Shown here in pieces: positions 55,175-58,449 of a DNA stretch of 64,000 nucleotides. The stretch's first letter is position 1. Every line of letters starts with the position of its first letter. The DNA lies in contig JAWOEX010000032.1 of the NCBI GenBank assembly GCA_046482545.1, positions 96,001 to 160,000 of the forward strand, given 5' to 3'. The position numbers and the translations under genes were made by a program. This DNA comes from Candidatus Thorarchaeota archaeon. Its GTDB lineage: Archaea; Asgardarchaeota; Thorarchaeia; Thorarchaeales; Thorarchaeaceae. The notes beneath the pieces are model-generated. The model was not told where the DNA came from, searched no databases, and saw only the letters and a list, made by a program, of their open reading frames with translations.

Positions 55175-55480
55175 CTATTTGCGAGTTGACTTCACTGTTT
55201 CTCTAATATGCTGAAGCAGATCTGCAATCTCCTCACTGGCGATGGAGTACATTTTCTTCTTCCCATCCCGTCTTGATTTGAGTATACCTGCATCGACAAG
55301 CTGTGTTAGATATGCCGAAACTGTAGACTGTGATAACCCTATCCGAGGGAATATTTCGCATTGACATTCTTCACCTTCAAGCAAATCTTCTACAATTCGC
55401 AATCTGACTGGATTGCTCAATGCCTTGTGAAATTCCACCCGCCGATTTATGAGTCGCTCATCTGATATCAATACTTCCAC
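55175..55480 (-). CDS. ArsR/SmtB family transcriptional regulator
   Basis: KALSNPVRLRI, ECQCEI metal site, SQSTVS, GIL..RRDG. Confidence 0.9.
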   Translation of the reverse strand: MEVLISDERLINRRVEFHKALSNPVRLRIVEDLLEGEECQCEIFPRIGLSQSTVSAYLTQLVDAGILKSRRDGKKKMYSIASEEIADLLQHIRETVKSTRK

Positions 55481-55490
55481 TCTACGCTAT

Positions 55491-56555
55491 CTATTTGGTA
55501 TCGTCCCTTTTTGTTGTTTCTAAAGGTTGTCTCCAAAATCCTTTCTTCCGCAGGTACTTGGCAAGATAGACTAGTCCGAGCATGACAGGAACCTCCCAGA
55601 ATAGTCCCATTGTTGTTCCCAATGCAGCGATTGATCCGACACCATAGATAGACACAGCTATAGCAATTGCGATTTCAAAGTGACTCGAAGAACCGATGAT
55701 GACTGTTATGACTCCTTCTGGATATGCAAGACCTATCTGCCGAGTAATGAGGAGATTATATGTAAGAACAATGCCGAATCCTGCTAACAGAGGAACAGAC
55801 ACCAGAAATAGCAAATCTGGATGTTCGAGCATCACATTACCATTTAGTGAAAATAACACTATGAGAGTAGTCAATAGGGCCACTAGGGCCAAGTTTCCTA
55901 CAGCTGGCCTGTAGGTGTTCTCAAACCATTTTCTTCCTTTCCGTTCGACTAGTAACTTCCGACTGACAACCCCAAGCAGAAGCGGTAATCCTATGAACAA
56001 GAAGGATGAGACTAACAGCAACCATCGATCTATTGGTATATTTGAGAGCCCAGTGAAAAGGGCAACCAGCGGTGCGTAGAATAGAATGATAGTAACGGTA
56101 TTTAGGCTGGTGGTGATTACGTTCTGTTCTTGGTTTCCCTTTGCGAGATATCCCCATACCAATACCATTGCAGTACAAGGACTTGATGTCAACAAGATAA
56201 CCGCCACTATGAGCTGTTCTTGTCCTGGAAGGAGAGCTGTTGCTAGTCCAAATCCCACTAATGGAGCTACAATCCAGTTTGAGAGTAGGGTCAAAATGAT
56301 TGGCTGGGGATTTTTTCCCAATTTCCTTAGTTCAGCAACTTCGAAATTCAACATTGCAGGATACATCATAAGAAACAAACAGATGCCTATTGGGACTGAG
56401 ATATCGCCAATTTGCCATGCGCCAATAGCAACACTGATTCCGGGGAATGCTCGTGAAAGGGCAATTCCTACAATCATACATATAGCGACCCAGATTGGCA
56501 AGTACTTCTCAAAAATTGTGAGTTCCTGCTTTGTTCCTGGTACATCGAGTTCCAT
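55491..56555 (-). CDS. acr3: ACR3 family arsenite efflux permease
   Basis: EKYLPIWV, MMYP, NWIVAP, PCTAMVLVW, SSHFEIAIA, EVPVML. Confidence 0.92.
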   Translation of the reverse strand: MELDVPGTKQELTIFEKYLPIWVAICMIVGIALSRAFPGISVAIGAWQIGDISVPIGICLFLMMYPAMLNFEVAELRKLGKNPQPIILTLLSNWIVAPLVGFGLATALLPGQEQLIVAVILLTSSPCTAMVLVWGYLAKGNQEQNVITTSLNTVTIILFYAPLVALFTGLSNIPIDRWLLLVSSFLFIGLPLLLGVVSRKLLVERKGRKWFENTYRPAVGNLALVALLTTLIVLFSLNGNVMLEHPDLLFLVSVPLLAGFGIVLTYNLLITRQIGLAYPEGVITVIIGSSSHFEIAIAIAVSIYGVGSIAALGTTMGLFWEVPVMLGLVYLAKYLRKKGFWRQPLETTKRDDTK

Positions 56556-56874
56556 GGTCTTTCCTCTTCTTGATGATTTGCGGTGTTTTTACATCGAAAA
56601 ATAGCGATTAGTCAATATATTAAGCTTCCCTTGTAAACCCCTTTAGAAGTAAACAATTGGATATCCAAACCAACTACTGGGCAGTTCTGACGATTTGGTT
56701 CCTTCCCTCTAGGATAGCGTATGCTGCAACACTACCCCCGCAGATTGTATATATAGAGGCAAACTCCCTTTTGCCAGCTCTATAGTTACTGTTCCAATCG
56801 GATTAGTATCGGACTGGGGTGATGTAGACTTACTCATTTTTTCCTCCTCAGCAGTTCTCGCATCAACACTCATC

Positions 56875-58449
56875 ATGGATAGACTCGTTGACAGAATTGG
56901 TTTCGAGTTGATAGCAGGTGTGATGGTGGTTCTCATCATTTTGCTCTTTGTCTACACTGACACACCTTACGAAGTCTCTCACGGAAGAACTCTCCTTATC
57001 TTTGCAGTGCCAATTGTGATGGCGGCTTTTCTCATTAGACCGTGGACTTCGGCATTGATTGCCATTCTCAGTTCTGTTATGTCACTGTTTGCAGGCTATG
57101 CTTTGCCAAATATACCCGCTATAGTGACATTTCACATTCTTGCGCTTCTCGTTTGGAATCTCTCTTCCCACCTTGAAGATACGATTGAGCAGCTAGCCAG
57201 CTCGCAAGAACGACTTGAAAACCAGAAGAAGCAGGCAATTCTGTATCTTGACGTTTTTGGACATGATTTTGCTAATAACCTCTAAGCTATCCTATTGGCG
57301 TTGGAATTCATAAAAGCACATTCTACAAGTGAAGAGATTAGACCAGTTATTAATAATGCAATCGACACATTGCATGACAGCAATAGTCTGATTAGAGAAG
57401 CGAAGAAGTTTGAATCCATCAATCAAGGTGAATTGAAGCCTTTTGAGATCTGCAAAACATTGGCGATATGTGTGGACGTTTTCAAGAATGAATATCCTGA
57501 TATTGCTATTGAATCCGAGGGGAACGTATCGGAAGCAGTAGTCAAAGCAGATACGTATGTTGCAGACTTATTCTCAATCCTGCTTGAAAATGCGGTACAG
57601 CATAACCCAAAGCAAAGAAGAACGTCTGGGTGCAAATACAGGAGGAGTGTGGCGGCTATGTAGTATCTATTGCAGATAATGGACCAGGAATACCCGATTT
57701 ACGAAAATCAACTCTATTTGATTTATCACATAGATATGGAGGACTTGGTTTACATCTGGCCAAGCTAATAGTTGACAATTACAGAGAAGGCAAGTTTTAC
57801 AAAAATCCTAAAAAATTCGGGTACAAAAGTGTAAGATTTCCTGCAACTCCTCTCCTGACCACAAGGGGAGTTTATTAGGCTCAGTACGGGGCCCCGGTTC
57901 AGTAGGACGAGGCAAGTGGGCTAGTGTTATACACGAGGCACGCGGCCGAAGGCTGTGAGGTGGACTCGTTCCACTAAGCACAAGTTCCCACTCTCCACTA
58001 AAGGAACTCCATCAGGTTCCGGAGTGTCCGCGGCTGTTCACCTTGTCCGTAATGGACCTCCTCAGTTACGGCGACAATGCTGAGGTGGGTGATCATGACC
58101 ACGCCGTGGCAAGAACTGTGGAAGACCTCGCTGTCGCCGGAGTGATGTGGCGGAGTTCGACAGGAGACGATAGCAATGACCGCGGAAGGAATCCCATTCC
58201 TGTGAACGCGGACAAAGCCCCTGCTGACTCACGGGCCTACGGGTACACAGAGGGCGGCAACGCTGGCAGGGGAAGAGTGGAACACAGAAGTTTCAGGCAG
58301 TTGCCAAAACTGTAAGAAACAGGTTATGCAAAGGTACTATTGCGGTCGAGAATCGGGTTTATGGAGAACCTGGAAAGGGAACCAAATTCCGGGTATGGTT
58401 ACCGGCTCTTGATTCGGGGAAAGACCGGCTTCATGGAACAGCGAGTTAG
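56875..58449 (+). pseudogene. membrane sensor histidine kinase pseudogene (nonsense, frameshift and 544-bp insertion)
   Basis: TM region, then H-box GHDFANNL*AILL (TAA 57283-57285), ENAVQHN, frameshift ~57612-57617, DNGPG, GGLGLHLAKLIVD. The frame resumes at 58321 as RLCKGTIAVENRVYGEPGKGTKFRVWLP, stop 58447-58449. Confidence 0.88.
57777..58320 (+). mobile_element. non-autonomous insertion element (IS607- or IS200/IS605-derived, MITE/PATE-like) with eroded tnpB tail and omegaRNA-like end
   Basis: Excision gives GTTGAC|AGGTTA and restores the kinase frame (junction ambiguous within shared ACA). A-rich TACAAAA-like motifs at the left end; subterminal hairpin CAGTT-GCCAA-AACTG at the right end; related copy at 14711. 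Family assignment is inference. Confidence 0.8.

Follow-up and report, generated by a model that had tools for sequence, protein, structure and literature searches.

The 64,000-nucleotide stretch of Thorarchaeota DNA analysed here (the window) carries a GC-rich insertion within the C-terminal part of a membrane histidine kinase gene, which it interrupts, and this raises the question of what the insertion derives from and which enzyme moved it. The first-pass annotation had read it as an internally deleted tnpB transposon of IS607 or IS605 type, moving in trans. We set its ends by the junctions of the family copies. Conservation from copy to copy stops abruptly at 58326 on the right and, on the left, at a hexamer ending at 57785, which gives an element of 541 bp (57786-58326) in place of the ends first proposed at 57777 and 58320. 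The GC content is 0.54, compared to 0.42 and 0.45 for the flanks, and there are no long terminal inverted repeats, both as initially described. The flanking hexamers are TACAGA on the left and TGCAAA on the right, the family consensus being TCNNGA. The features of the locus, all on the plus strand, are the following.

56794..57779, plus strand: 5' part of the host membrane histidine kinase gene, which had previously acquired a stop near 57283-57285 and a frameshift near 57605-57645, both unrelated to the insertion
57780..57785, plus strand: left junction hexamer TACAGA, common to the sister copy at C28:101299
57786..57903, plus strand: left end, which over its first ~55 bp matches that of the 8.3-kb parent at 94%
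57795-57803, 57806-57814 and 57829-57837, plus strand: phased 9-bp left-end motifs, one of the usual inner pair missing in the window copy
57904..58157, plus strand: 3' tail of tnpB, frameshifted and lying past RuvC-III (codons ~461-544), with DHDHAVART at 58091-58117
58158..58289, plus strand: structured sequence that follows the tnpB stop and is conserved, a probable omega-RNA scaffold (z -1.98 for 58150-58326)
58290..58326, plus strand: right end, with a terminal hairpin at 58290-58320 that holds the end motif CTGTAAGAA (58310-58318), then AGGTTA
58327..58332, plus strand: right junction hexamer, TGCAAA, which matches the left hexamer at 4/6 positions
58333..58446, plus strand: C-terminus of the host histidine kinase, in frame once the element and one hexamer are removed

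When the element and one hexamer are taken out, the kinase reads D-N-Y-R-G across the site, which aligns without a gap to the orthologous kinases of two genomes of the same genus (D-K-Y-D-G) and keeps the conserved Tyr, whereas excision at the originally claimed ends gives D-R-L-C-K-G, one residue longer. Because the hexamer-based excision fits the orthologues without a gap, the ACA seen earlier at both junctions is shared by chance, and the true junction repeat is the hexamer. The same removal at five other sites brings back reading frames that are open for 75-196 aa to either side, so that one hexamer copy is gained on insertion. The TTGAC reported immediately 5' of the insertion is present but not conserved, being found upstream of only 2/53 left ends. 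Spaced A-rich motifs do occur at the left end, as noted, but one of them, TTACAGAG, consists of the left hexamer plus flanking bases and is no end motif. Elsewhere in the window, at 55175-56555 on the minus strand, a pair encoding an ArsR-like regulator and an Acr3-like arsenite exporter was recognised by eye.

The source of the insertion was found within the genome of the window (G000, a draft of 45 contigs, 98.9% complete). Positions 119-509 of the mini element match, at 81%, the 3' part of an 8296-bp element on contig C28, that is, the last ~85 codons of tnpB and most of the 177 bp of downstream sequence. Two complete parents of 8.2-8.3 kb are present in this genome, at C28:133391-141686 (8296 bp; hexamer TCAGGA) and C20:228523-236748 (TCTGGA), and a third in G001; both parents in G000 have identical hexamers on the two flanks and the same ends as the minis. 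Their only large genes are tnpB and a giant open reading frame. The C28 and C20 parents contain no serine or Y1 TnpA, no DDE gene and no reverse transcriptase, and no match to PolB was obtained among the parent ORFs scanned. The tnpB-linked homologue of these ends is thereby found in both, while the autonomous parent that had been expected, carrying a serine recombinase or Y1 TnpA, is replaced by one that pairs tnpB with a giant protein of Cas1 fold. DHDHAVART lies where it was first placed and does come from tnpB; it agrees residue for residue, however, with the C-terminal tail (about 521-529) of the parent TnpB and is not a decayed zinc finger and RuvC-III, both of which (RuvC-III being NADRNG, 436-441) are deleted from the mini.

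The parent TnpB proteins (544-559 aa) have the RuvC-I Asp, a Gly replacing the RuvC-II Glu, an invariant alternative Glu and the RuvC-III Asp. This rearranged RuvC-II is described in PMC10691335 and occurs in many TnpB branches. The giant ORF of the intact parents is divergent and encodes 1410-1655 aa (given also as 1400-1700 aa). It has no Pfam match, and no similarity to Cas1 was detected by sequence (Pfam, PF01867, NCBIfam and PDB sequences); fold comparison alone revealed it. A model of the first 340 residues (pLDDT 84) was searched against 48,161 chains, and the top 12 were all Cas1 or casposase with Z scores of 9.2-13.3, the next match being at 6.9. The casposase 6opm aligned over 182 residues with Z 10.7 and an rmsd of 3.7. 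Foldseek also ranked Cas1 first, weakly, with E-values of 0.006 or weaker, and the ESM Atlas hits noted beside these searches, below 0.8, serve as a lead only. E68, H163, D170 and D173 are invariant across giant-protein sequences that are 27-38% identical. Only the helical Cas1 domain aligns, and it is fused to further domains. Further along the protein, a domain folds like RecA/KaiC (Z 10.7) and has a Walker A that looks degenerate. Motifs in the residues between the two parts (about 340-600) point to a putative PD-(D/E)xK nuclease domain. The tnpB of this clade stands head to head with the giant gene, hereafter aCas1, in 16/25 loci.

Loci that pair aCas1 with TnpB were reportedly described computationally by Makarova et al. 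in CRISPR J in 2020. Such loci of Asgard archaea (Cas1H-Asgard-1/-2) are described, likewise computationally, in the main text of Altae-Tran et al. 2023 (PMC10691335), where aCas1 is called only the 'likely' transposase. The elements reported there agree with ours in the Asgard host, in the Cas1-fold giant protein beside tnpB, in GTTCACTCA downstream of the parent tnpB and in the flanking repeats. This GTTCACTCA motif is found in both parents and in many copies; it is deleted in the subfamily of the window copy. The window mini, unlike full elements, is without both genes and without the GTTCACTCA loop. The insertion almost certainly arose by deletion from the Thorarchaeota aCas1-TnpB transposon, as a non-autonomous element of 541 bp that sits at a TCNNGA-like hexamer present on both flanks; the family to which it belongs had already been predicted in the literature. 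It retains the left end, the tnpB tail, the probable omega-RNA and the right end, and the view of an internally deleted tnpB element that has to move in trans holds. End sequences, a target hexamer and mini derivatives of aCas1-TnpB are all absent from the main text of PMC10691335, and the 'hypervariable region' that it proposes as a possible guide corresponds here to the 5' arm of the terminal hairpin. Exact ends, minis and an inherited hexamer core of aCas1-TnpB were not found in the literature searched, outside of which lay the 2020 paper and the 2023 supplement.

The element family is abundant, the window copy being one of dozens of minis that contain no gene. BLAST of the insertion in G000 gave more than 100 partial or full matches, mostly 70-85% identical, and profile scans detected 54 left ends and about 73 right ends; even between the closest minis, identity is only 95%. 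Two other genera also have minis, of 546-570 bp, whose flanking hexamers are identical. Element DNA occurs in 16/24 genomes of the host family, 15 of these 16 having aCas1, and all 13 genomes with the TCNNGA-type right-end pattern have aCas1 while 2/13 have an IS607 tnpA above the family cut-off, the genomes in both counts being kin and hence not independent. Overall, aCas1 is found in 37/60 host-family genomes. In G000, two minis lie head to head at C20:181322-182439 with one hexamer common between their left ends, a nested left end is found at C9:359467-359595, a 1658-bp composite occupies C22:202871-204528, and at C34:112400-114400 a full tnpB is preceded by an AbiE-type toxin-antitoxin-like gene pair (named by eye) and not by aCas1. 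Apparent 5' truncations suggested a retroelement, an idea that was rejected: many of them are BLAST breaks between end types, and the parents have no reverse transcriptase.

The region downstream of the tnpB stop forms conserved hairpins with a few two-sided changes, and the arms of the terminal hairpin vary together across genera. By analogy with other TnpB systems, it is a probable omega-RNA; Rfam gave no match for the RNA region of the element. In one RNA run, the depth was of hundreds to ~1900 over the tnpB tail and right end and of 0-4 in the flanks, a value which sums all copies, may hold DNA and so is not taken as expression. The reads of four runs contained no empty allele and no circle junction.

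The junction hexamer carries most of what can be said on the mode of insertion. It is identical on both flanks in 21/46 candidate pairings, and its central two bases agree between loci at 0.10; ten different central dinucleotides occur within TCNNGA, none of them GG. Among left ends, 26/51 have the same central bases as their nearest relative, compared to 7.3 in shuffles; among right ends, the figures are 18/53 and 7.9. The shuffles leave relatedness uncorrected, as it is the signal under test. The sister of the window copy has the same unusual left hexamer, TACAGA. The orientation is fixed: AA:TT stands at 14:4 and 16:3, compared with 1:1 in the genome. More left hexamers than right ones agree with the consensus (40/54 versus 36/72, p 0.01), and in mismatched pairs the right hexamer is the odd one in 9 cases versus 2, both comparisons carrying some ascertainment bias. 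Lineage-specific outer bases are common to both flanks (TACAGA/TACAGA), which suggests more than 2 bp of homology. Being inherited by lineage and fixed in orientation, the hexamer behaves like a donor-borne recombination core and not like a random target duplication. Two further ideas on the target were dropped. A duplication of 8-12 bp as a rule was not retained, identity beyond the hexamer being near background (57 versus 48.7 matches, p 0.055); it extends at least three bases past the hexamer in 5/26 copies (p 0.03). Guidance of target choice by the right flank of the donor was set aside on inspection, sister copies having only the hexamer in common.

For the mobiliser, we lean slightly towards aCas1, which according to the structural model is the only integrase fold encoded by the element; the full reading, identity as an aCas1-TnpB derivative together with aCas1 as the mobiliser, is on balance just probable. 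In this reading, the intact 8-kb parents would supply the giant protein, and its Cas1-fold domain would act in trans on the mini, the ends of which are probably joined around one hexamer in an excised, circular intermediate. This intermediate would insert preferentially at a matching hexamer in a fixed orientation, with the consequence that the hexamer is inherited along a lineage and switches only sometimes. By analogy with IS605 and IS607 elements, TnpB and the omega-RNA probably protect the element from being lost, through cleavage of empty sites. Against aCas1 counts the inherited core itself, because this is not known behaviour of Cas1-type integrases: the casposases act on TIR ends and leave simple target duplications of 14-15 bp (PMC6977970). 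Casposons resemble these elements in having a Cas1-fold enzyme with conserved E/H/D as candidate transposase, with some related loci beside tRNA 3' ends; they differ in that here there is no PolB, there are no true TIRs and the duplication is of 6 bp and not 14-15 bp, longer only in a few copies. The inherited hexamer is a hint that insertion may follow a chemistry so far undescribed among Cas1-type enzymes. In its strongest form, with aCas1 a Cas1-fold transposase that excises and reinserts elements by way of a donor-borne 6-bp core and whose targets are chosen by homology to that core in fixed orientation, the proposal is possible but doubtful; if true, a Cas1 active site would be behaving like a recombinase that can be reprogrammed through a change of six bases, with the 550-bp minis as natural minimal substrates. 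As an observation apart, aCas1-TnpB loci without the TCNNGA right end (L004:16161-16270; L167:4121 and 10833; L213:9865) lie directly beside apparent tRNA 3' ends (by eye), recalling casposon targeting.

aCas1-TnpB elements are predicted to be transposons, and no experimental test was found in the literature searched. The minis offer exact ends, a target consensus and a natural donor of 550 bp, a size conserved across three genera or more, and they yield the prediction that the donor hexamer dictates the target. Were aCas1 the mobiliser, the range of Cas1 chemistry would be wider, which bears on the transposon origin of CRISPR adaptation.

The same element may instead have been moved by an IS607-type serine recombinase that is now lost or unassembled, with aCas1 as cargo or accessory and the central two bases of TCNNGA as a 2-bp crossover. 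This account, the closest to the first reading, we regard as conceivable though rather improbable. IS607 elements have direct-repeat end motifs, no true TIRs and an invariant GG core (PMC6188088). With members of that family (IS607, IS1535, ISC1926, CboIStron) the window element has in common tnpB at the right end, phased direct-repeat motifs, an imperfect subterminal inverted repeat and a short core present at both junctions. The end motif occurs as phased direct repeats on the left and in direct orientation on the right, and it switches together at both ends between genera, from TGTAAGA to TGTCAGA. The inheritance of the central bases fits this account, and the better consensus fit of the left hexamer is what retention of the donor core at the left junction by IS607 TnpA (bioRxiv 2023.11.20.567912) would give, the left junction apparently keeping the donor core here also. 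However, the core is a variable 6-bp TCNNGA and not GG, and the outer bases common to both flanks speak for a homology longer than a 2-bp crossover. No linked serine TnpA was found for window-type ends: an IS607 tnpA was not found in G000, G001, G002, G003 or G018, all carriers of TCNNGA-type elements, and a custom profile from Thorarchaeota IS607 tnpAs gave nothing in G000 (best E 4.5). The genome of the window also had no match for PF00239, NF033518, PF00589, PF07508 or PF02371 and no resolvase was found in it; large serine, tyrosine and IS110 recombinases were not found in G000-G003.

In other genera, at least nine aCas1 loci do have an adjacent IS607 tnpA, and aCas1 may, given this company, be a passenger; but their left ends are of a GG type unrelated to the TCNNGA-type ends (no nhmmer match) and their TnpB belongs to a different clade:

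L156-L164 (G010, G052, G055, G050, G021, G005, G022, G051): aCas1 genes within elements that also hold an IS607 tnpA, their left ends being of GG type and their TnpB of another clade

aCas1 seems to move between two kinds of ends. The mobiliser could also have been lost since the last movement, the closest minis being 95% identical and the genome a draft. A serine recombinase as mobiliser would make the family an IS607 offshoot with a relaxed core, of modest interest. At its ends the window element works like IS607, and it stands outside that family by its TnpA and its core, so that the IS607 assignment survives for the layout of the ends, with their phased repeats and short inherited core, and falls for the serine TnpA and the GG. 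It is not IS605. With IS200/IS605 solo-tnpB/omega-RNA remnants it has in common a subterminal hairpin and, at the right end, a tnpB tail and a putative structured RNA; it differs by the lack of a conserved 4-5-nt motif at the 5' side only, TTGAC not being conserved, by a hexamer duplicated on both flanks, and by having no linked Y1 TnpA. The single Y1 TnpA gene of G000 (C24:6161-6457) is truncated, has no second copy and lies outside any element.

A tyrosine recombinase that escaped detection, either host XerA-like or element-borne, could act on two 16-17-bp inverted arms around a 6-7-bp spacer. The arms formed by the joined ends are indeed inverted, if imperfectly, and each has TTACA at 11-12 bp from the hexamer; tyrosine recombinases require spacer homology, which would explain both the inheritance and the fixed orientation of the hexamer. 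We consider it quite unlikely, as the whole genomes G000, G001, G002 and G003 gave no match to PF00589 at E 0.05 and none by motif pattern, with no obvious XerA.

If the insertion were an ordinary MITE, mobilised by a DDE transposase that prefers TCNNGA and duplicates 6 bp of its target, this would account for the hexamer gained on insertion, and G000 does hold a multicopy IS5-like gene, but such an origin is very improbable given that there are no true TIRs, that the parents have no DDE gene and that random duplication of a symmetric target would be neither inherited nor fixed in orientation. This IS5-like transposase (named by eye) is found at C29:202, C18:7635, C4:40692, C9:315403 and C2:4903, and is apparently unrelated to the element ends.
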